Source of the DNA: Chiloscyllium plagiosum
Lineage: Eukaryota
Assembly (NCBI RefSeq): GCF_004010195.1
Contig: NC_057719.1
Span: 2,364,384-2,406,451, forward strand
DNA: 42,068 nt
Direction: 5' to 3'
Below, in pieces: positions 4,229 to 41,755 of the stretch. The notes beneath the pieces are model-generated. The model made no database searches. It saw only the letters and a program-made list of their open reading frames with translations, and was not told the origin of the DNA. Position 1 is the stretch's first letter; every line of letters starts with the position of its first letter. The translations under genes and the position numbers were made by a program.

Positions 4229-4325
4229 AGCTGAGGAAGGGCCACCGAAACGTTAACTCTGATTTCTCTTCACAGATGCTGCCAGACCTGCTGAGCTTTT
4301 CCAGCAACTTCAGTTTTTGTTTCTA
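4229..4325 (+). mobile_element. Penelope-like terminal repeat with hammerhead-like core
   Basis: CTGAGGA-AGGGCCACC-GAAA-CGTT-AACT, followed by the same downstream sequence as the Penelope 3' end at 40554-40670. Confidence 0.8.
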
Positions 4326-5633: not shown

Positions 5634-6412
5634 GTATAAATGTGAGGTGATGCACTTTGGGAAGAATAACAGGAAGGCAGAGTACTGGGTCAATGGAAAG
5701 ATTCTTGGTAGTGTGGATGTGCAGAGGGATCTTGGAGTCCATGTGCATAGATCCCTGAAAGTTGCCACCCAGGTTTATAGTTCTGTTAAGAAGGCATACG
5801 GTGTGTTAGGTTTCATTGGTAGAGGGATTGAGTCCCGGAGCCACAATATCACGCTGCAACTATACAAAACACTAGTGCGGTCACACTTGGAATATTGTGT
5901 ACAGTTTTGCTCGCCATATTTCGGGAAGGATGTGGAAGCATTGGAAAAGTGCAGAGGAGATTTACCAGGATGTTGCCTGGTCTGGAGGGAAGGTCTTATG
6001 AGGAAAGACTGAGAGACTTGAACCTGTTCTCATTGGAAAGAAGGCGGCTAAGAGGGGATTTGATTGAGACATTCAAGATGATCAGAGGATTAGATAGGAT
6101 AGACAGTGGAAGTCTTTTTCCTAGGATGATGATGTCAGCATGTACGAGGGACATAACTACAAATTGAGGGGTGATATATTTAAGACAGATGTCAGAGGCA
6201 GGTTCTTTACTCAGGGAGTGGTAAGGGTGTGGAACGCCCTACCTGCTGATGTAGTCAACTCAGTCGCAATAGGGAGATTTAAACAGTCCTTAGATAAGCA
6301 CATGGATGATGATGGGATAGTGCAGGGGGATGAGCTGAGAATAGTTCACAGGTCGGCACAACATCGAGGGCGGATGGGCCTGTTCTGTGCTGTATTGTTC
6401 TATGATCTATAG
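5634..6412 (+). mobile_element. CR1-type LINE 3' fragment
   Basis: KCEVMHFGKNN...HLEYCVQF...LFSLERRRLRGDL...FFTQGVVRVWNALP, frameshifted, with a GTTCTAT tail. Confidence 0.95.
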
Positions 6413-6735: not shown

Positions 6736-7193
6736 CCCCTTCCCAGTTCTCTGCAGACCTGGGGATGTGTGGTACACGGCTGTCACCATCCGGGACTCTC
6801 GTTGAGTGCCGTCTGCGGTAGGAGTTGAGTGAGTGGGAGCTCTGGCTCTGGGTTGTGCTGATGTTTGCGGATGGGTTGGAGGTGAGGCCTCTGTTCGTGT
6901 CGGGCTTCGGCTGACAACCAGTAACTGGCTGGTCTGTGGATGAGTCATCAGTTAACAAGGCCTTCTGCCTGGCAACAGCCGAATGATTGGCTGAACAGCT
7001 TAAGGTGTGAATGTTCAGGTGAGAAACCACTGGATCTCTGGCCAAGAAGGGGGTATTATTACTCTTCAGCAAGGGAGATCTGAAGGAAGGAAGCAGCCAG
7101 GCTATTGCCCCTCAGTAGTTACTGTACACTCTCTTCTCTAATTGATAACGCAAAGATCTTTATAAACATGAATCAGACACCCTGTTCTCCCTG

Positions 7194-7348
7194 GAACAGC
7201 GCAGCAGGTCAGGCAGCATCCAAGGAACAGGAGGGCTCATGCCCGAAACGTCGATTCTCCTGCTCCTTGGATGCTGCCTGACCTGCTGCGGTTTTCCACC
7301 AACACATTTTCAGCTCTGATCTCCAGCATCTGCAGCCCTCACTTTCTC
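7194..7348. mobile_element. Fold-back Penelope-like mini-insertion with 16-bp TSD
   Basis: Inverted arms CGCAGCAGGTCAGGCAGCATCCAAGGAACAGGAG / CTCCTGCTCCTTGGATGCTGCCTGACCTGCTGCG, flanked by CACCCTGTTCTCCCTG (7178-7193) and CACCCTGTTCTTCCTG (7349-7364). Confidence 0.85.
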
Positions 7349-7467
7349 CACCCTGTTCTTCCTGTAAAGCAATGGAAGTATGTGGAGAGTAAAGAGTGAG
7401 AAGCAGCTTTCTGATCATTTAAACAATTATCTCAGCAAATCCTGTGGACAGGGGCCACAGCCCATTG

Positions 7468-8270
7468 TTTGGGCTGCAAGGTGGCAAATGGAGTTCAATG
7501 TCGATAAACGAGAGGTGATGCACTTTGGGAAGAATAATAGGAAGGCAGGGTACTGGGTCAGTGGAAAGATTCTTGGTAGTGTAGATGTGCAGAGGGATCT
7601 TGGTGTCCATGTGCATAGATCCCTGAAAGTTGCCACCCAGGTGGATAGTGCTGTTAAGAAGGCATACAGTATGTTAATTGGTAGAGGGATTGAGTTCCAG
7701 AGCCACCGTACCATGCTGTAACTATACAAAATACTGGTGCGGCCACACTTGGAATATTGTGTACAGTTCTGGTTGCCATATTTTGGGAAGGATGTGGAAG
7801 CATTGGAAAAGGTGCAGAGGAGATTTACCAGAATGTTGCCTGGTCTGGAGGGAAGGTCTTATGAGGAAAGGATGAGAGACTTGGGTCTGTTCTCATTGGA
7901 GAGAAGAAGGCTAAGAGGGGATTTGATAGAGACATACAAGATGATCAGAGGATTAGATAGGATAGACAGTGAAAGTCTTTTTCCTAGGATGATGATGTCA
8001 GCATGTACGAGGGGGCTTAACTACAAATTGAGGGGTGATAGATTTAAGACAGATGTTTTTTACTCAGGGAGTGCTAAGGGCGTTGAATGCCCTACCTGCT
8101 AATGTAGTCAACTCAGCCACATTAGGGAGATTTAAACAATCCTTGGATAAGCACATGGATGATGATGGGATAGTGTAGGGGGATGAGCTTAGATTAGTTC
8201 ACAGGTCAGCGCAACATTGAGGGCCGAAGGGCCTGTTCTGCGCTGTATTGTTCTATGTTCTATGTTCTAC
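7468..8270 (+). mobile_element. CR1-type LINE 3' fragment (same subfamily as 5634-6412)
   Basis: WQMEFNVDKREVMHFG...HLEYCVQFW...; ends GTTCTATGTTCTATGTTCTA. Confidence 0.95.
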
Positions 8271-10734: not shown

Positions 10735-11211
10735 GCTGAGGGAGTGCCGCACTGTTAGAGGGTCAGTGCTGAGGGAGTGCCGCACTGACAGAGGGTCAGT
10801 GCTGAGGGAGTGCCACGCTGTTGGAGGAACAGAACTGAGGGGGTGTCACACTGTTGGAGGGTCAGTGCTGAGGGAGAGCCGCACTGTTGGAGGGTCAGTA
10901 CTGAGGCAAGGCAGCACTTTCGTAGGATCACTGCTGAGGGAGTGCTGCACTGTTGGAGGGTCAGTGCTGAGGGAGTGCTGCACTGTCGGAGGGTCAGTGC
11001 TGAGGGAGTGCCGCACTGTTGGAGGGTCAGTACTGAGGCAAGGCAGCACTTTCGTAGGGTCAGTGCTGAGGGAGTGCTGCACTGTTGGAGGGTCAGTACT
11101 GAGGGAGTGCCGCACTGTCAGAGGGTCAGTGCTGAGGGAGCGCCGCGCTGTCGGAGGGTCAGTGCTGAGGGAGTGCCGCACTGACAGAGGTCAATGCTGA
11201 GGGAGTGCCGC
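10735..11211. repeat. 33-bp minisatellite running into an assembly gap
   Basis: Unit CTGAGGGAGTGCCGCACTGTCAGAGGGTCAGTG, ~14 copies. Confidence 0.95.
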
Positions 11212-11967: not shown

Positions 11968-12092
11968 GGGAGAAAGTGAGGACTGCAGATGCTGGAGATC
12001 AGAGCTGAAAATGTGTTGCTGGAAAAGCGCAGCAGGTCAGGCAGCATCAAAGGAGCAGGAGAATCGACGTTTCGGGCATAAGCCCCTCTTCT
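11968..12092 (-). mobile_element. Penelope-like terminal repeat with hammerhead-like core
   Basis: Minus strand reads CAGAAGA-G-GGGCTTATGCCC-GAAA-CGTC-GATTCTCCTGCTCC; same family as 7194 and 41667. Confidence 0.85.
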
Positions 12093-23668: not shown

Positions 23669-24371
23669 GGGTCTTGGACATTATCCTGAGGAACTCCTGC
23701 AGGGATGTCCTGCAGCTGAAATGACTGACCTCCAACAACCATAACCATCTTCCTATGTGTCAGGTATGACTCCAACCAGCGGGAAGTTTCCACCAATAAC
23801 CATTGATGCCAGTTTTTCACCTCTGGAATCCAGCTCTTTTGTCCATGTTTGAGCCAAGGCTGTAATGAGGTCAGGAGCTGAGTGACCCTGGGGGAACCCA
23901 AACTGGGCGTCACTGAGCAGGTTATTGCTGAGCAGGTGCTGCTTGATAGCACTGTTGGTGACATCTTCCATCACTTTCCTGATGATTGAGAGTAGACTGA
24001 TGGGGCAGTAATTGGCCGGGTTGGAATTGTCCTGGTTTTTGTGTACAGGACATACCTGGGCAATTGTCCACATTGTCGGGTAGGTGCCAGTGTTGTAACT
24101 GTACTGGAACAGCTTGGCGAGGGGAGCGGCAAGTTCTAGAACACAGGTCTTCAGTACTATGGCTGGAATGTTCTCAGGGCCCATTGCCTTTGCAGTATCC
24201 TGTACCTCCAACCATTTCTTGATATCACGTGGCTGGAGCCTGGTATCTGTGACGCTGGGGAACCATTGGAGGAGGCTGAGATGGATCATCGACTCGGCAC
24301 TTCTGACTAAGTTTGCTGCGAAAGCGTTAGCCTTATCATTTGGACTGATCTGCTGGGCTCCTCCATCATTG

Positions 24372-24512
24372 CCAAGAGTCTGGTGCTGGAATTGCACAGC
24401 AGGTTAGGCAGCATCCGAGGAACAGGAGATTCTCCTGCACCTCAGACCTGCTGTGCTTTTCCAGAACCACACACTCGACTCTGATCTCTAGCATCTGCAG
24501 TCCTTACCTTCT
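24372..24512. mobile_element. Fold-back Penelope-like mini-insertion with perfect 15-bp TSD
   Basis: GCTCCTCCATCATTG at 24357-24371 and 24513-24527 flanks inverted arms of the 7194/41667 family. Confidence 0.85.
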
Positions 24513-25547
24513 GCTCCTCCATCATTGAGGAGGGGGATATTTGTGAAGCCGCCTCCTCCATTGGGTTGTTTAATCACCCACCACCATTCACAACTGGATG
24601 TGGCGGGACTGCAGAGCTTAGATCTGATCCATTGGTTGTGGGATCACTTAGCTCTGTCTATCACATGCTGTATAGCCCATTTGGTACACAGGTGGTCCTG
24701 TTTGGTGGCTTCCCCAGGTAGACACCTCATCTTCAGGTATACCTGGTGCTGCTCCTGGCATGCCCTCCTGCACTCTCCACTGAACCAGGGTTGATCCCCT
24801 GCCTTGATGGGAATGGTTGAGTGGGGGATATGCCGGGCCACGAGGTTACAGACTGTGCTGGAGTACAGTTCTGCTGCTGGTGATGGCCCAGAGTGCCTCA
24901 TGGATGCCCAGTCTTGAGTTGCTCACTCTGCTCCAAGTCTGTCCCACTTAGCACAGTGATGGTGCCACACAACACAGTGGAGGGTATTCTTAACGTGAAG
25001 GTGGGAATTTGTCTCAAGGACTGTGCGGTGGTCACTCTTACCCAATACAGTCATGGACAGATACTTCTGCAGCTGGCAGATTGATAAGGATGAGGTGAAT
25101 TATGTTTCTCCCTCTTGTTGGTTCCCTCACCACCTGCCGCAGACATAGTCTCGCAGCGACGTCCTTTAGGACCCAGCCAGCTCAGTCTGTAGTGCTGCTG
25201 ACTGCCGAGCCCCTCTTGGTGGGAGTGGGGGGCATTGAAATTGGATACTATTTGAATAGACCTAGTGTGCAGGAATATGGGAAAACAGGTAGGAGATTGG
25301 CATGAGGGGATAGGAACAGCACAATGGCCACTTTCTGTGCTACCCTGGGCCTGATGGTATGGGACAGACTGACTGCTGGTGATCCTGCGTGGTCGTGACA
25401 GATGCTTTTGGCAGACATTACCAGAAAGAATGACCAACACAAATCATTAAAGACCATGCGCACTGCATCCTATCCTCCATCCCCTCCCCCCAGTCCCCTG
25501 AGAGGGAATTCCAGAGCTTGGGATGAACTGCCAATGGATTTTATTTC

Positions 25548-28540: not shown

Positions 28541-29394
28541 AATCTACAATATTTGTGGACGAGGTATGAACTGTGAAGCCTTGTGTTAGTAATGGTTTCA
28601 GGATCTAGATCCAGTCAGTTCATTATGATTCGCGTGCACAGTCTGTTACTGAGACAGTGAAAGCTGTGGCTAGTGATTTTATTTGTCAGAAACGAACAAG
28701 CAGTTTTTCACCAAATTGGACAGGAAATTGACAAGTTTGGGAAGTGTGTGTGCGTGTGTGTGAAGTGTCTTGAGCTTATAAGGTTCTGAACGTTACCTTC
28801 GGTTAAGTTCATCACTGCTGCTACAGCTGACTCGGTCACAGATAAAACTCATTTCAAACAGCTAACTTTGGTGTCTCAGTCTGAACAGTACACAGCTGGG
28901 AAAATACATTTTTAAAAAAGTTTTGTTTGAAAGTAAACCCACTTCCTGTCTCATTTTAACCCAGTGAGGACTGAAATAGTAGCTTTAAAAAATCTGACTC
29001 AGATTGTTGGAGACACAGAGAGAGGCTGACACACAGAGCATGACACAGTGATTAGGAGGGAGAGAGAAACTGGAAGATTGAGAAGGGGAGGCATTGGGAG
29101 AGAGACAGAGGGCACATTTTGAGTCAAGTTATCATTACCTGGTTCCTTCATTGAGGTAAGACTTTTAAACAAATAGATTTTATTGATTATTAAGTGTTTT
29201 GGAGGATTGTGAGTTGCAAATTGTGTGTTTTTTTAATAAATGCAAGGTTTATGATTGTTTCATTTCATGTTTAAGTTCAATGACAGCAGTTTCAAGGTAC
29301 AGTTCTCTGCTGGTGTTTATATAAATTAACCAGAGGTTCTTGACTGAGCTTAGATCTAGTTGGAGTTTATATGAAAACGCTCAAGATTGCAGAA

Positions 29395-30670
29395 GAATTG
29401 AATTGAATTGAATTTATTGTCCCGTGTACCGAGGCACAGTGAAAAGCTTTGTTTTGAGAGCAAAACAGGCAGACCCCTGAGTTAAGTAGCGTGGATAAGT
29501 AAATAATAGGTGAACAGCAGCAAAAACAAAAACACAGGTACGGGCGAATGTTAGGAGTTTGTGAGTCCATTCCGTATTCTAACAACAGTCGGGTAGAAAC
29601 TGTTCCGAAACCGGCTGGTGCGTGTGTTCAGGCTTCTGTACCTTCTCCCCGATGGTAGAGATTGTAGAAAAACATTGTCAGGGTGGGATGGATCTTTGAG
29701 AACGCTGGCGGCCTTTCCTTGACAGCGGGTCTGGTAGATGGATTCTATAGATGGGAGGTTGGCCTTCGTGATTGTCTGAGCCGAGTTCACCACTCTCTGT
29801 AACCGTCTCCGATATTGAATGGTACAGTTGCCATACCAGGTAGTGATACATCCAGACAGAATGCTCTCGGTGCACCTATAAAAGTTGGCAAGGGTATTCA
29901 CCGTCATGCCAAATTTCCTCAGCTGCCTGAGGAAGACGAGATGTTGTTGGACCTTTGTAACTAGTGCGTCCACATGAAGAGTCCAAGAAAGCTTGTTGTG
30001 GATGACCACTCCCAGGAGCTTGACACTTTCCACTTGTTCTACCTCTGTGCTGTTAATGTGTAGGGGGGCATGAGTAAAATCCTGCTGAAAGTCAATAGTG
30101 GGTTCCTTGGTTTTGCGGACTGTTTGAACATGGCCCCAATCAGCTGATTCCAGACAGTACCAGAGTTGATCCTCTGCCACATCCGACCTTCACTGGACCT
30201 GTATCTGCGAGGGGGAATCTCCTGCTTGAGCTTTTGCCTGTAAGCAAGGAGAAGAAACACTGCATTATGGTCAGAGTTTCCGAAATGAGGGTGGGGGGAT
30301 GGAGCGGTAGGCATCTTTCACAGTGGTGTCGCAGTGGTCTAAAATGTTCGGGCCCCTTGTGGGGCAGGTAATGTTCTAGTGGTACTTGGGCAATACCTTC
30401 CTTAGATTGGCTTGATTGAAGTCGCTGCTTACAATAACAGGGCCTCGGGTATTCCATCTCCAGGGTGTTAGTGGGGGGGGTACAGCACATCCAGAACTTC
30501 CTCAACCTTTGCTTGTGTCAGCATGAACCCAGCAGTTAGTGTAGCAGCGGGAAATTCCCGTGATAGATAGAAGGGGCAGCATTTGATGGTGAGGAGTTCA
30601 AGGTATGGGGAGCAATGGCTGCCCAGGGTTGCAATGTCCGTGCACCACAAATTGTTGATTAAAAAACAAA
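29395..30670 (-). mobile_element. Rex1/Babar LINE remnant with large internal deletion
   Basis: The endonuclease region (HFGNSDHNAVFLL) is fused directly to the RT C-terminus (KTKE..DF, FLRQLRKFG, FYRCTESILSGCITTWYGN, LPSGRRYRS...RFRNSFYP); (AATTC)n tail. Confidence 0.9.
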
Positions 30671-31444
30671 CCCCCCCACCCTTTGAGATGGAGGAGATAT
30701 GAAACTCAAAACAAAATCAAATAGATTGAAGGAAGTGGCAAGAGGCAATAAAAGACAATTTCCAAACCTTTAATTGACAGCATATAATCAACTAGCTCTC
30801 TGTAAATCACTGCAACTTAAAGACAATTCACTTTCCTCAACATACGCCAAAGAAACATTCATCTATTTCTTTGACAGAATCATTCTCTGTTCATTTCTGT
30901 GGGACTGTATTCCCCATCTTTCCCCAGTTAAAATGTCTAGAAAAACAGGAGGAGATTATTCAGCCCATTGGGCTGATTCCACTATTTTCCAGGACCACGG
31001 ATGATCTTCTACTGTGATACCATAGTAACAGGAGCCAATGTAGGCCAGTCCTCCCAGTGAGTCTGATCTTCTACTCCTCCTGCCAAGACATGGAACTTCA
31101 CCTGTTCCCCATCTGCAAGTGTTTGCTCACTCGTCCATATCACCACCCTCCCACTCTCTCCCCAGGGCCCTTAATCTTTGTGGTACTCACAAATCTATCA
31201 ATCTCAGCAACAGAACATTGATCCCTCTCTGGGGAAGAGAATTCCAAAACTTCACCAGGCTCTGAGTGAAGAAATCACTCCTTCTCTCAGTCTTGCACTG
31301 GGACAGTGGGCCAGTGCTCCACCTCCTACCATAACCATGTCTAGCCCATCAGAGTGCACTGGGCTGAGGGATCTCAGTTTCAGGATAGAGACAGAGTCAG
31401 ACATACTCTGGAGAACCATCATGGTTTTCCTAACCTCTGGGGCA

Positions 31445-31679
31445 TTGAGTCCACACCAACCCTCCAAACAGCATTCCACCCAGCCCCACCCCCCCACCCT
31501 ATCCCTATAACTCTGCATTTCCCTTAACTCACCCACCTAGCCTGTACATCCCTAGACACTATGGGGCAATTTCCCATGGCCAATCCACCCTAACTTGCAC
31601 ATCTTTGGACTGTGGGAGGAAACCGGAGCTCCCAGAGGAAACCCACGCAGACACAGGGAGAATGTGCAAACCCCACACA
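31445..31679 (-). mobile_element. HE1-type V-SINE (head missing), left arm of inverted duplication
   Basis: V-domain plus tail; homologous to 32976-33240. Confidence 0.85.
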
Positions 31680-31871
31680 ATATTCCAGAAGCGCCCTAAC
31701 CAATGTCCTGTACAGCCGCAATGTGACCTCCCAACCCCTGTACTCAATACTCTGACCAATAAAGGAAAGCATACCAAACGCCTTCTTCACTATCCTATCT
31801 ACCTGCGACTCCACTTTCAAGGAGCTGTGAACCTGCACCTCAAGGTCTCTTTGTTCAGTAGCACTCCACAG

Positions 31872-31977
31872 CAGAAAGGAAGGACTGTAGATGTTGGAGA
31901 GTCAAAGCACAGTGGGTCAGCCAACACTCGAGGAATGGGAGAGTCCACGTTTCAGGCATTAGCCCTTCGTCAGGAAT
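31872..31977 (-). mobile_element. Penelope-like terminal repeat with hammerhead-like core
   Basis: Minus strand reads CTGACGA-A-GGGCTAATGCCT-GAAA-CGTG (31973-31946). Confidence 0.75.
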
Positions 31978-32580
31978 GGTACAGGAGTTGGGAGGTCATG
32001 TCGCGGTTGTACAGATCATTGCTTAGGCCATCTTTTGGAAAACTGTGTTTAGTCTGGCCTCCTTCGTATCAGAAGGATGTTGTGAAACTTGAAAGGGTTC
32101 AGAAAAGATTTACAAGGATGTTGCCAGGGTTGGAGGATTTAAGTTATAGGGAGACGCTGAACAGGCTGGGGTTGTTTTCCCTGGAGCGTTGGAGGCTGAG
32201 GGGTGACCTTATAGAGGTTTACAAAATCATGAGGGGCATGGATAGGGTAAATGGACAAGGCCTTTTCCCTGGGGTGCGGTGTCCAGAACTAGAGGGCATA
32301 AGTATAGGGTGAGAGGGGAAAGATATAAAAGGGACCTAAGGGGCAACAGTTTCACACAGAGGGTGGTGCGTATGTGGAACGAGCTGCCAGAGGAAGTGGT
32401 GGAGGCTGTTACAATTATAACTTTTAAAAAGCATCTGGATGGGTATATGAACAGGAAGGGTTTGGAGGGATATGGGCCAAGTGCTGGCAAATGGGACTAG
32501 ATTGAGTTGGGATATCTGGTTTGCCTGGACGAGTTAGACAAAAGGGTTTGTTTCTGTGCTGTACATCTCTATGACTCTAT
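31978..32580 (+). mobile_element. CR1-type LINE 3' fragment
   Basis: YRSWEVMSRLYRSLLRP...FTQRVVRMWNELP, with a CTCTATGACTCTAT tail. Confidence 0.95.
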
Positions 32581-32975
32581 CTCAGGGGTTTCCCCCTCCA
32601 CTTATGTAATTAAGTGTTAAATAATCTTGTTTTCTGATCTTCAGTAACTACCTTGTACATTCTCAGGGAGATATGTGAGCCGCCACCAAAGCTCTGAGTC
32701 AGCCCCGTCAACGGACATCTGTCATGGCATTTTGTCAAACTCACTGCTTGCTGTGTCCCTGCACTTCCCCTTTGGAAAGACACTTCTCCAGAGAGCTGGA
32801 GGAGGTTTCAGCTCTCTCTCACGCCACACTGACTCCCACTAACTGAATTTCCACTCACACAACCTGGAGATTTTTCTTAAGGTTCTGATCTCCACTTTGA
32901 AAATAAAATTTTTATTCCGATTTGTTCCAAAATACTGCCAGCTCTCCAATTACTTTAGCTTAAGGCTTGTAAGGT

Positions 32976-33240
32976 GACTGTCTGTGTGGAGCTTGCACAT
33001 GCTCCCTGTGTCTGCGTGGGTTTCCTCCAGGTGCTCCGGTCTCCTCCCACAATCCAAAGATGTGCAGTGGATTGGCAATGGGAAATTGCCTGTAGTGTTC
33101 AGGGATTTGTAGGCTAGGTGGGTGAGCCGTGAGGAATGCAGGGTTACAGGAATTGGATAAGGGGTTGGGTCTGGGTGGGATAGTATTTGGAGGGTTGGTG
33201 TGGACTCAATGGGCCAAATGGCCTGACCCCACACTGTAGG
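32976..33240 (+). mobile_element. HE1-type V-SINE, right arm of inverted duplication
   Basis: TGTGTGGAGCTTGCACATGCTCCCTGTGTCTGCGTGGGTTTCC V-domain plus tail. Confidence 0.85.
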
Positions 33241-33371
33241 AAAACCACGATGGTTCTCCAGAGTATGGCTGACTCTGTCTCTATCCTGAAGCTCAGATCC
33301 CTCAGCCCAGTGCACTCTTGTGGGCTAGACAAAGTCATGGTAGGAGATGGAGCACTGGGCCACTGTCTCAG

Positions 33372-33412
33372 TGCTGCCTGACCTGCTGTGCTTTTCCAGC
33401 GCCACTCTTTTT
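33372..33412 (+). mobile_element. Penelope-like terminal-repeat fragment
   Basis: TGCTGCCTGACCTGCTGTGCTTTTCCAGCGCCACTCT. Confidence 0.75.
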
Positions 33413-33959
33413 GAAAATACTCCCCAGGTCCTTACCATTAAGTGTATAAATCCTGCTCTAATTTGCTCTTCCAAAATGTAGCAGCTCACATTTATTTAAA
33501 TTAAACCCCACCTGTCACTCCTGGGCCCATTGGCCCATCTGATCAAGGTCTGGGATGTGGTTGGGCTGGGGTGGTGGTTGATGGTCAGGGAAGGGGAATG
33601 TTTGGTCTGTATTCAGCTGGCAGTGTATCTGGTGAGACTCTATTTCTGAGAGATGAACCCAGGCAGATCCCTGACTATATTTTCCTGTCTCCTCTGGGGC
33701 CGGCCCTGAACTGGTCACTGAGAAAGTATCGATGTCTCTCCAGCTTCCCCAGGCTTCTCCCTAATTTAACTCAGTTTCTGTGGCATGATGTAAACCCGAC
33801 AACAATATCTGGACCTTGCATCTCATGGTTTACTGAGATAGGCTGCAGCATTTTGCAATTGTTCAGGAAACAAAACCATTGTGGTTCGTGACAGAAGAAA
33901 CGATGAAAATTATACCTTTTTATATAAGCATTGCTGGCTGGTTTCCCACATTGCGCTGT

Positions 33960-36900
33960 TTGATTTTATTTTGACTTTATTGCTGCATGTATTTTAAGTA
34001 AGAATACAATAAATGAGAGTGAAAAGCTTTCTTGCATCACCACGATGTGGTGCCATTTTGAATAATTTATGAATAAGGGAAAAGAAAGAAATATACAACT
34101 TGAAGAGAGTCCATCGGTCAGTCCTGAGCCAGTTCATCACTGACAATGATACCTTCACCACCATCACTCCATTACCACCATCACTCCATCACCACCATCA
34201 CTCCTTCACAACCATCACTTCTTCACCACCATCACTCCATCACCACCATTACTCCATCAACACTATCACTCCATCACTACCATCACTCCATCACCACTAT
34301 TACACCTTCACCACCATCACTCCATCACCACCATTACTCCATCAACACCATCACTCCATCACTACCATCACTCCATCACCACTATTACACCTTCACCACC
34401 ATCACACCCTCACCATCATCACTCCATCATCACCATCAAACCATCATCACCATCAAACCATCACCACCATCACTCCACCACCATCACTCCTTCACCACCA
34501 TCGCTCCATCACATCACTCCATCACCACTATCACTCCATCACCACCATCACTCCATCCCCACTATTACTCCTTCACCACCATCACTCCTTCAACACCATC
34601 ACTCCATCACCATCATCACTCCATCACCACCATCACTCCTTCACCACCATCACTCCTTCATCACCATCACTCCATCACCACCATCACTCCATCACCACCA
34701 TCACTCCTTCACCACCATCACTCCTTCATCATCATCACTCCATCACCACCATCACTCCTTCACCACAATCACTCCTTCACCACTATCACTCCTTCACCAC
34801 CATCACTCCTTCATCACCATCGCTCCATCAACACCATCACTCCTTCACCACTATCACTCCATCGCCACCATTACTCCTTCACCACCATCACTCCTTCACC
34901 ACCATCACTACATCCCCACTATTACTCCGTCACCACCATCACTCTATCAACACCATCACTCCATCACCACCATCACTCCATCACCACCATCACTCCATCC
35001 CCACTATTACTCCTTCACCACCATCACTCCATCAACACCATCACTCCATCACCATCATCACTCCATCACCACTATCACTCCATCACCACCATCACTCCAT
35101 CACCACCATCACTCCAACACCACTGTTACTCCTTTACCACTATCACTCCATCACCACCATCACTCCTTCTCCACCATCACTCCATCACCATCATCACTCC
35201 ATCACCACCATCACTCCATCACCACCACACTCCATCACCACCATCGCTCAATCACCACCATCACTCCTCTTTCACCACCATTACTCCATCACTACCATCA
35301 CTCCATCACCACTATCACTCCATTACCACNNNNNNNNNNNNNNNNNNNNNNNNNNNNNNNNNNNNNNNNNNNNNNNNNNNNNNNNNNNNNNNNNNNNNNN
35401 NNNNNNNNNNNNNNNNNNNNNNNNNNNNNNNNNNNNNNNNNNNNNNNNNNNNNNNNNNNNNNNNNNNNNNNNNNNNNNNNNNNNNNNNNNNNNNNNNNNN
35501 NNNNNNNNNNNNNNNNNNNNNNNNNNNNNNNNNNNNNNNNNNNNNNNNNNNNNNNNNNNNNNNNNNNNNNNNNNNNNNNNNNNNNNNNNNNNNNNNNNNN
35601 NNNNNNNNNNNNNNNNNNNNNNNNNNNNNNNNNNNNNNNNNNNNNNNNNNNNNNNNNNNNNNNNNNNNNNNNNNNNNNNNNNNNNNNNNNNNNNNNNNNN
35701 NNNNNNNNNNNNNNNNNNNNNNNNNNNNNNNNNNNNNNNNNNNNNNNNNNNNNNNNNNNNNNNNNNNNNNNNNNNNNNNNNNNNNNNNNNNNNNNNNNNN
35801 NNNNNNNNNNNNNNNNNNNNNNNNNNNNNCCACCATCACTCCTTCACCACCATCACTCCATCGCCACCATCACTCCCATCATCACCATCGTTCCATCACC
35901 ACCATCACTCCTTCACCACCATCACTCCATCACCACTATCACTCCATCACCACTATCACTGCTTCACCACCATCACTCCATCACCATCATCACTCCATCA
36001 CCACTATGACTCCATCACCACTATCACTCCTTCACCACCATCACTCCATCACCACCATCACTCCATCACCACCATCGCTCAATCACCACCATCACTCCAT
36101 CACTACCATCACTCCATCGCCACTATCACTCCATCACCACTATCACTCCATCACCATCATCACTCCATCACCACCATCACTCCATCACCATTATCACTCC
36201 TTTACCAGCATCGCTACATCACCGCCATCACTGCATCACCACCATCACTCCTTCACCACCATCACTCCATCACCACCATCACTCCATCACCACCATCGCT
36301 CCATCACCACCATCACTCCTTCACCACCATCACTCCATCACCACCATCGCTCCATCACCACCATCACTCCATCACCACTATCATTCCATCACCACCATCA
36401 CTCCCACACTACCATCACTCCAGCACCACTATTACACCTTCACCACCATCACTCCCGCACCATCATCACTCCATCATCACCATCAAATCATCATCACCAT
36501 CAAACCATCACCACCATCACTCCATCACCACTATCACTCCATCACCACTATCAATCCATCACCACCATCACTCAATCACTACTATCACTCCATCATCACC
36601 ATCAAACCATCACCACCATCACTCCACCACCATCACTCCTTCACCACCATTACTCTATCACCACCATCACTCCATCACCACCATCACTCCATCACCACTA
36701 TCACTCCATCACCTCCATCACTCCATCACCACTATCACTCCTTCACCACGATCGCTCCATCACCACCATCACTCCATCACCACCATCACTCCATCACCAC
36801 TATCACTCCATCACCACTATCACTCCATCACCACCATCACTCCATCACCACCATCACTCCATCACCACCATCGCTCAATCACCACCATCACTCCGTCACT

Positions 36901-37592
36901 ACCATCACTCCATCACCACTATCACTCCATCACCACTATCACTCCATCACCATCATCACTCCATCACCATCATCACTCCATCACCACTATTACTCCATCA
37001 CCACTCTCACTCCTTCACCAGCATCACTCCATCACCACCATCACTCCATCACCACCATCGCTCCATCACCACCATCGCTCCATCACCACCATCACTCCTT
37101 CACCACCATCACTCCTTCTCCACCTTCACTCCATCACCACCATCACTCCATCACCACCATCGCTCCATCACCACCATCGCTCCTTCACCACCATCACTCC
37201 ATCACCACCATCGCTCCATCACCACCATCAGTCCATCACCACTATCACTCCATCACCACCATCGCTCCATCACCACCATCACTCCATCACCACTATCACT
37301 CCATCACCACCATCACTCCATCACCACTATCAATCTATCACCATCACTCCTTCACCACCATTACTCCATCACCACCATCACTCCATCGCCACTATCACTC
37401 CATCACCACCATCACTCCATCACCACCATCACTCCATCACCACCATCACTCCATCAACGTCATCACTCCATCACCACGATCATCCATCACCACTATCACT
37501 CCATCACCACCATGCTTCCTTCTACACTGGACCCAACCAACGTCGAAACCACCAATCCTCAGATGCCGTATTTTTCCCCGGGGCCTACCCTG
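33960..37592 (-). mobile_element. Copy B of the Rex1-tailed short element, split by the 17-bp satellite
   Basis: Both satellite flanks align collinearly with the reverse complement of 2780-3055. Confidence 0.7.
34152..37513. repeat. ~17-bp satellite (CATCACTCCATCACCAC)n, includes 500-N gap 35330-35829
   Basis: Continuous degenerate array. The period is not a multiple of 3, so the long His/Thr/Ser/Pro ORFs are artefacts. Confidence 0.95.
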
Positions 37593-38867: not shown

Positions 38868-39585
38868 TGCAGTTTGCAGATGACACCAAAGTTGGAGGTG
38901 TAGTGGACAACGGAGAGGGTTACCTCAGATTACAACAGGATCTTGATCAGATGGGCCGGTGGACCGAGGAGTGGCAGATGGAGTTTTATCTAGATAAATG
39001 TGAGGTATTGCATTTTGGAAAGGCAAATCAGGTCAGGGCTTATACACTTAATGGTGTGGCCCAGGGGAGTGTTGCTGAGCAAAGAGCAGGTTGATAGTTC
39101 ATTGAAAGTGGAGTCGCAGGTAGATAGGATAGTGAAGAAGGCGTTTGGTATGCTTTCCTTTATTGGTCAGAGTATTGAGTACAGGAGTTGGGAGGTCATG
39201 TTGTGGATGTACAGGACATTGGTTAGGCCACATTTGAATATAGCATTCAATTCTGGTCTCCCTGCTATAGAAATCATGTTGCAAAACTTCAAAGGTTTTG
39301 AAAAGATTGACAAGGATGTTGACAAGGTTGAAGTGTTTAAGTTATAGGGGGGAGGCTGTATGGCACAGGTATGGAATGAGCTGCCAGAGGAAGTGGTGGA
39401 GGCTAGTACAATTACAACATTTAAAAGGCATCTGGGTGGGTATATGAATAGGACGGGTTTGAAGGGATATGGGCCAAATGCTGGCAAATGGGACTCGACT
39501 TATTTAGGATACCTGGTCAGCACGGGTGAGTTGGACCGCAAGGTCTGTTTCCGTGCTGTACATCTCAATGACTCAATGACATTGT
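38868..39585 (+). mobile_element. CR1-type LINE RT and 3' fragment with deletions
   Basis: FADDTKVGGVVD...WQMEFYLDKCEVLHFG...WNELPEEVV. Confidence 0.95.
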
Positions 39586-40531: not shown

Positions 40532-40684
40532 GTTTTCCTCGCTACCATCAGTTCTGAGGAAGGGTCACCGAGCCCGAAACATTAATCTGCTTTCTCTTCC
40601 CAGATGCTGCCAGGCCTGCCGAGCTTTTCTGGTAATTTTTGATTTTGTTTCTGATTGCCAGCATCTTTGGTATTGTTTAATTTA

Positions 40685-41661: not shown

Positions 41662-41755
41662 CCTTCCTGATGAATGGCTTTTGCCTGAAACGTCGATTCT
41701 TCTGCTCCTCGGATGCTGCCTGACCTACTGTACTTTTCCAACACCACACTCTCCA
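41662..41755 (+). mobile_element. Penelope-like terminal repeat with hammerhead core
   Basis: TC-CTGATGA-ATGGCTTTTGCCT-GAAA-CGTC-GA, with the GUC triplet retained. Confidence 0.8.

Follow-up and report, generated by a model that had tools for sequence, protein, structure and literature searches.

A decayed insertion with putative Penelope-like ends and an apparent, partial inverted copy of the adjacent DNA

Captured host DNA of 0.9 to 1.5 kb has been described in Adineta vaga, where it lies between pLTRs, is accompanied by a target-site duplication (TSD), and has an empty site on record (Arkhipova et al. 2013, PMC3846280); a plan of inverted pLTRs plus a tail is published for Penelope-like elements (PLEs) (PMC3846280; PMC8557442). 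Among somatic L1 insertions, fold-back inversions of 52 to 220 bp upstream of the inserted element were reported in 4 cases (0.4%) and ascribed to extra DNA synthesis during resolution, with a nearby pre-mRNA co-inserted once (Nam et al. 2023, PMC10191854). The purified Poseidon PLE protein cuts and extends both strands and initiates at two positions on the RNA, which mark the limits of the tail (PMC11167929). Metazoan PLEs carry minimal hammerheads, which are mentioned as occurring in opposite-strand pairs 100 to 700 bp apart (Cervera and de la Pena 2014, PMC4209133), and the link between Penelope sites and inversion breakpoints is, as described, only cytological (PMC3681739). No report of a kilobase-sized local inverted copy between Penelope arms was found in the literature searched, which consisted mostly of open-access main texts.

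Here we describe an old, dead jumping-gene insertion that probably bears the mark of a copying accident during the landing of the element. All inferences about it draw on a single window (the whole 42,068-nucleotide stretch of DNA that was analyzed) plus published papers.

Structure of the locus

The window is repeat-rich vertebrate DNA on a gapped scaffold with runs of N, of which about 37 kb are usable. Among 23 sequencing-run entries listed, 18 contain part of this stretch, in fractions of 0.40 to 0.70 for one organism, 0.21 to 0.33 for a second, and 0.21 to 0.26 for a third. The insert (31872-33408 of the window sequence; 1,537 bp) interrupts a LINE fragment and consists, in order, of a long, tailed Penelope-like arm, a 1,396-base interior, and a short, tail-less arm, with both arms facing outward. 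The labels shark for the DNA, HE1 for the SINE, and CR1 for the LINE are putative assignments from the character of the repeats. HE1 is a SINE name from elasmobranchs (PMC10468316). RVT_1 was matched by four of the eight window ORFs tested against Pfam, and peptides of the locus resemble, by protein comparison, window LINE fragments that hold this domain; two locus peptides searched directly matched no Pfam family. The features of the locus are as follows:

31040..31294, minus strand: decayed, old 3′ fragment belonging to a second subfamily of LINEs (E = 2e-15 in nhmmer, the profile being built from 12 window LINE 3′ parts)
31295..31432, unstranded: flank, left (presumed original) copy, 138 bp, 126/138 to 33374-33237
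31433..31679, minus strand: left copy of the SINE (putatively HE1-type), which breaks off at ACACA and lacks 15 bases close to its 3′ end
31675..31679, unstranded: ACACA microhomology at the SINE/LINE joint, marking a 939-bp deletion relative to the insert
31680..31871, minus strand: interrupted LINE, left half (putatively CR1-type), from the region downstream of the RT core, 91.7% to 39086-39241
31860..31871, plus strand: left copy of the target-site overlap, degraded, 9/12 to 33416-33427
31872..31978, minus strand: long Penelope-like arm with a 3′ tail, a minimal hammerhead core (31949-31973), and two internal deletions
31979..32583, plus strand: LINE 3′ part within the insert, 81 to 89% to three other window copies
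32584..32972, unstranded: spacer, single copy in the window and missing from the left copy (window self-comparison)
32973..33243, plus strand: right copy of the SINE, 5′-truncated (window comparison)
33237..33374, unstranded: flank, right (presumed derived) copy, its terminal TGC common to the short arm
33372..33408, plus strand: short Penelope-like arm without a hammerhead, stopping at the tail-less end of the family
33409..33550, minus strand: right half of the interrupted LINE, 80% to 38939-39073, with target-site overlap 33416-33427 inside

That a minus-strand CR1 is split by the insert, as the earlier note had it, is upheld by the collinearity of the two halves against an intact copy at 38939-39241. 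The halves overlap by about 12 bases (4 to 5 codons in translation); as evidence to the contrary, the right half is 20% divergent from that intact copy, and the adjoining left part 4.3%. The two versions of the overlap agree at 9 of 12 positions (8/9 in the core, 12/21 when extended), which is poorer than the target duplications of two compact fold-backs in the same window (15/16 for 7192-7348 and 14/14 for 24373-24513). Judged by its sequence, the overlap may be a degraded target-site duplication; the possible aged TSD suggested earlier would then lie 4 bases further to the right than had been proposed.

Other repeats abound in the window. Two LINE 3′ parts (5636-6410 and 7504-8263) form a direct pair, 89.6% identical over 777 bp and 1.9 kb apart with a fold-back between them, and may be young copies of one family or the product of tandem duplication on the spot. 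Inverted two-copy matches of 75 to 84% occur in three more places (2889-3055/33972-34142, 17305-17509/20731-20922, and 19407-19568/25548-25709) and are probably dispersed repeats. A 17-bp satellite occupies 34134-37527 (about 170 units read, with one 500-base gap) and is open in several frames, giving His/Thr/Pro-rich nonsense ORFs; minisatellites with 28-bp and 33-bp units lie at 2338-2739 and 10735-11211, respectively. A 212-codon open frame at 29551-30189 on the minus strand belongs to another retroelement type and matches Pfam ALKBH8_N (E = 1e-6), a model known to match LINE-derived sequence.

The inverted match and its flank

Self-comparison, which the earlier note had suggested, recovers an inverted match between 31295-31679 and 33374-32983 (328 matches, 47 mismatches, and 27 gap columns; BLAST E = 9e-111) and a second between 31675-31743 and 32048-31979 (80%), the latter including the LINE overlap, in which 31680-31743 meets the first 64 bases of 31979-32583 in reverse (51/64). 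Flank, SINE, and LINE follow one another in identical order and orientation in both copies. The earlier description of 31978-33374 as a 1.4-kb inverted copy is borne out for only about 450 of the 1,396 interior bases (some 385 + 64 bp); for the other 939 bp, no remnant was found on either side, within 28600-31978 or 33428-34130. An assembly artifact is very improbable as a source of this arrangement: the window is gapped and inverted PLE structures are described as troubling assemblers (PMC8557442), but the copies differ at 47 sites plus several indels and the nearest gap is 1.8 kb away.

Judged from sequence, the argument for a local copy is carried by the flank. Its two copies are identical at 126 of 138 positions (91.3%), with 12 substitutions and no indel, exactly as an earlier hand count of 12 mismatches had indicated, and no third copy was found in the window. 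The flank had been called non-SINE, which is right for nearly all of its length but not for about 7 bases that are the SINE's own 3′ end. A structured RNA or a second hammerhead was considered for it and rejected, as its folding is not notable (z = 0.18 and −0.11) and Rfam returned no match anywhere in the window.

The SINE and LINE parts are less telling. The two copies diverge by 8.7% over the flank, by 16.7% over the part of the SINE tested, and by 20.3% (13/64) over the LINE overlap; the difference from the flank has p = 0.048 for the SINE part and Fisher p = 0.036 for the LINE overlap (p = 0.21 without CpG-context sites), and overall heterogeneity across six segments, one of them mis-registered, is not significant (chi-square p = 0.10). 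Both SINE copies carry a block of about 29 bases that is missing from the third SINE copy in the window, which has a different 3′ flank. The copies of the LINE overlap are 14.8% and 13.1% divergent from the unrelated copy at 38939-39241, unrelated members of this LINE family differ by 10 to 16%, and no shared derived change is visible between the two; because the overlap is no closer than unrelated copies, it backs the inverted copy by order and orientation only.

These family-level likenesses bear on the unlikely alternative that the interior is a host segment moved via RNA (a read-through transcript from here or elsewhere) by the Penelope machinery, or that flank plus SINE form a dispersed repeat of low or middle copy number, the resemblance to the left neighbor then being one of family. 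The match does end at element junctions on both sides, the window holds other two-copy repeats (e.g., 19407-19568/25548-25709, 84%), and trans-mobilized host segments between pLTRs with a TSD are published (PMC3846280). Yet the two copies lie only 1.8 kb apart, with none elsewhere in the 37 kb of usable window, they keep three parts in the same order, and the flank lacks a notable fold.

The left edge of the match can be read in two ways. The match stops exactly where the old LINE fragment begins (its alignment starts at 31294), and a natural element end on the left would explain this edge equally well under a dispersed or RNA-transduced origin. Alternatively, the flank may be the decayed upstream continuation of LINE fragment 31040-31294, which would make the left copy the original and explain the coincidence of edges. 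The LINE 3′ profile found no match to the flank alone. Tests of the flank as decayed LINE gave, in local form, p = 0.004 (left copy) and 0.056 (right copy) against one of nine LINE copies (pooled, 0.10 and 0.33) and, in anchored form, p = 0.001 against one of four (pooled, p = 0.12). The indication of contiguity with the left neighbor is suggestive only, and this weak sign speaks against a dispersed origin.

Arms, junctions, and a possible order of events

The arm family occurs at six loci in the window, three of them solitary, and its copies, once aligned, show two alternative end points separated by about 35 bases. The 37-bp short arm ends at the same point as the copies at 1757-1844, 24373-24432, and 41663-41752, and the long arm extends about 35 bases past that point, as also happens in the two fold-backs (7192-7348 and 24373-24513), each of which pairs one long arm with one short inverted arm. 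The likeness of the outward arm geometry to the fold-backs at 7194 and 24372, noted earlier, is thereby confirmed down to the pairing of a long tailed with a short tail-less arm. From its terminal pieces (architecture and hammerhead motif), the insertion is putatively assigned to an EN+ Penelope-like family.

A hammerhead core (CTGAnGA..GAAA) is present only in the left arm, at 31949-31973, where stem II folds. Hammerhead cleavage needs an NUH triplet; the presumed cleavage triplet of the left arm, GTG, is not of this type, and four other copies in the window have GTC or ATC. Describing both Penelope ends as hammerhead bearing is thus correct for the left arm, with a decayed triplet, but not for the right arm, which at 37 bp has no core. 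Divergence from seven other copies is 21 to 28% for the left arm and 7 to 19% for the right, a difference that is not significant (p = 0.23 to 0.79).

Including their target duplications, the compact, Penelope-type fold-backs span 7178-7364 and 24358-24527. Both of their short arms carry CCTGTTCC, where long arms read CCTGC-CC. The long arms at 7233-7349 (in a fold-back) and 11969-12085 (solitary) are 96% identical and represent a younger subfamily; no target duplication was found around the solitary one. A second repeat family with a hammerhead core (CTGAGGA..GAAAC) is represented by copies at 4231-4324 and 40554-40652, which are 80% identical.

Both ends of the interior abut the Penelope arms exactly. 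The 5′ end of the long arm is similar to the stretch of the left LINE just past the point where the copy ends (11/13 with one gap), a likeness reached by 3.5% of 5,000 random positions; the TGC common to the short arm and the end of the flank is at chance level (0.05; 6 to 34% of random sites). In the left copy, the SINE meets the LINE at ACACA (31675-31679), where sharing of at least 5 bases has a chance of 0.005. Both this join and the absence of about 0.9 kb from the left side, as noted earlier, prove correct, the missing stretch amounting to 939 bp present in the insert. The inverted repeat has a center of 235 bp. Long inverted repeats of this kind are expected to be unstable, which fits the loss of that stretch from one arm.

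Because the interior ends abut the arms, the arms show the long/short pairing of the family, and the LINE halves overlap, a single insertion event appears to be the simplest reading. We lean, with modest confidence, toward one Penelope insertion primed at both DNA ends, its gap bridged by a reverse copy of the neighboring DNA and the original reduced by 939 bp through microhomology. Acting in trans, an endonuclease-bearing Penelope-like element would use a short pLTR as template; its nuclease would make a staggered cut within the LINE copy, and both free 3′ ends would be extended on the element RNA. The first priming, from the tail end, would give the long arm, copied as far as the hammerhead front, and the second, from the internal start, would give the short arm; the two-site, two-strand start of Poseidon predicts just this, one arm with a tail and one without, located at opposite ends of the cut and extended toward each other. 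Direct joining of the two products would be the usual outcome, producing fold-backs of 130 to 150 bp like those elsewhere in the window, and here one growing strand would have moved over to neighboring sequence and made a reverse copy of about 1.4 kb. The long arm may have folded back onto its own strand some 130 bases upstream of the cut, with synthesis then leading away from the cut; or else the short arm may have invaded 1.5 kb upstream, with synthesis leading toward it. An RNA of the locus is an alternative template. The ends would then have been joined at short homologies, and the inverted repeat would have lost 939 bp of its original arm by microhomology deletion, afterwards or during fill-in.

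Much the same scheme, a single insertion with a template switch and partial deletion, had been put forward in the earlier note; coincident boundaries, arm pairing, and the LINE overlap speak for it, but the switch itself, a plausible step onto the flank, is only inferred. The single event, the status of the left copy as original, the enzyme, the template (DNA or RNA), and the timing of the deletion are likewise what we infer.

Two other histories would produce a similar arrangement. A plain Penelope fold-back could have come first, with its hairpin center breaking later and host repair (snap-back or theta-type) copying the neighbor, so that the element acted as a fragile site; we regard this as rather unlikely. 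Both window fold-backs have lost the hammerhead front at their centers, yet the long arm here retains the entire front, and 1.4 kb is long for the polymerase theta pathway. On the other side, the arms (4/22) and the target overlap (3/12) look older than the flank pair (12/138), an age gap that is not significant (p = 0.10 with the target overlap mis-registered), and polymerase theta is described as making stem-loop extensions and inverted templated insertions (PMC11292364). The second history, which strikes us as improbable, invokes separate origins: an inverted duplication or inversion that is older and has nothing to do with Penelope, two separate arm insertions at its ends or close to them, and two unrelated LINE fragments. 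Such arms are common in the window (six loci, three of them solitary), and the two arms, like the two LINE halves, differ in divergence. It nonetheless needs an arm placed exactly at each breakpoint, with the long/short outward pairing, as well as a pair of LINE fragments sharing about 12 bases in element coordinates, for which we roughly estimate a chance of about 1%.

Two further schemes were rejected. A LINE 5′ inversion by twin priming, with 31680-31871 as the inverted piece of 31979-32583, fits the geometry but does not account for the match of flank and SINE, for the right half of the LINE, or for the short arm. Four events would be needed for a tandem duplication with subsequent inversion between two arms, a scheme that also gives no direct overlap at both outer ends.

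Generality and relation to described systems

The locus is a neutral fossil, a single degraded example without function. Host DNA is enclosed by only one of the three divergent arm pairs in the window, and none of the three solitary arms has a local copy within 3 kb; on these counts, the earlier conclusion of a PLE-driven structural-variation mechanism overreaches from one locus. We consider it doubtful that two-ended insertions of this very abundant Penelope family across the lineage bridge their gaps at a measurable rate by copying DNA from within about 1.5 kb of the cut, seeding many local duplications; under this tentative reading, the duplications would be up to a kilobase in size and some would be inverted, and they would then decay by deletion. 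If true, the second-strand and joining step of Penelope could be read from the genome through the way captured pieces are oriented and how far away their sources lie. How Penelope-like elements finish insertion is, according to the accounts available, not established (PMC11167929; PMC8557442). One degraded locus proves little, but a unit with element-derived sequence at both ends, an overlap of target sequence, and an inverted filler matching local DNA constrains that finishing step, in that both DNA ends would be primed and the joint could be host templated. If recurrent, the process would generate small structural variants wherever a genome contains many Penelope-like elements.

Of the described systems, the PLEs of Adineta vaga share with this locus head-to-head arms with a 30- to 40-bp tail on one arm only, a short target duplication (at this locus a candidate one), 0.9 to 1.5 kb of enclosed host DNA, and no need for an element ORF in cis (PMC3846280). 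There, direct pLTRs surround the captured gene, which has been relocated to another site, whereas here the enclosed DNA apparently derives from the immediate neighbor and is inverted between two inverted arms. A few other captures are mentioned for that system, in the text consulted without their source or orientation. The L1 cases resemble the present locus in pairing a retroelement insertion with an inverted duplicate of sequence that lies upstream of the target (PMC10191854); unlike them, the present locus is Penelope-like, germline, up to 1.4 kb in extent, and closed by a second element-derived arm. Minimal hammerheads of PLEs match the left arm in CTGAnGA, an extra base before a 4-bp stem II, GAAA, and a palindromic minimal stem III (PMC4209133), but here the core is found in one arm only and the cleavage triplet is altered. 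Two-site priming by the anole Poseidon element accounts for a tailed and a tail-less arm at one cut (Frangieh et al. 2024, PMC11167929); that work is in vitro, and the text consulted describes neither the copying of host DNA nor the filling of a gap. Enclosure of host DNA by Penelope ends has been described before, as has fold-back duplication at L1 sites, and what appears to be new here, by comparison with the literature searched, is the kilobase-sized, local, inverted form for Penelope.
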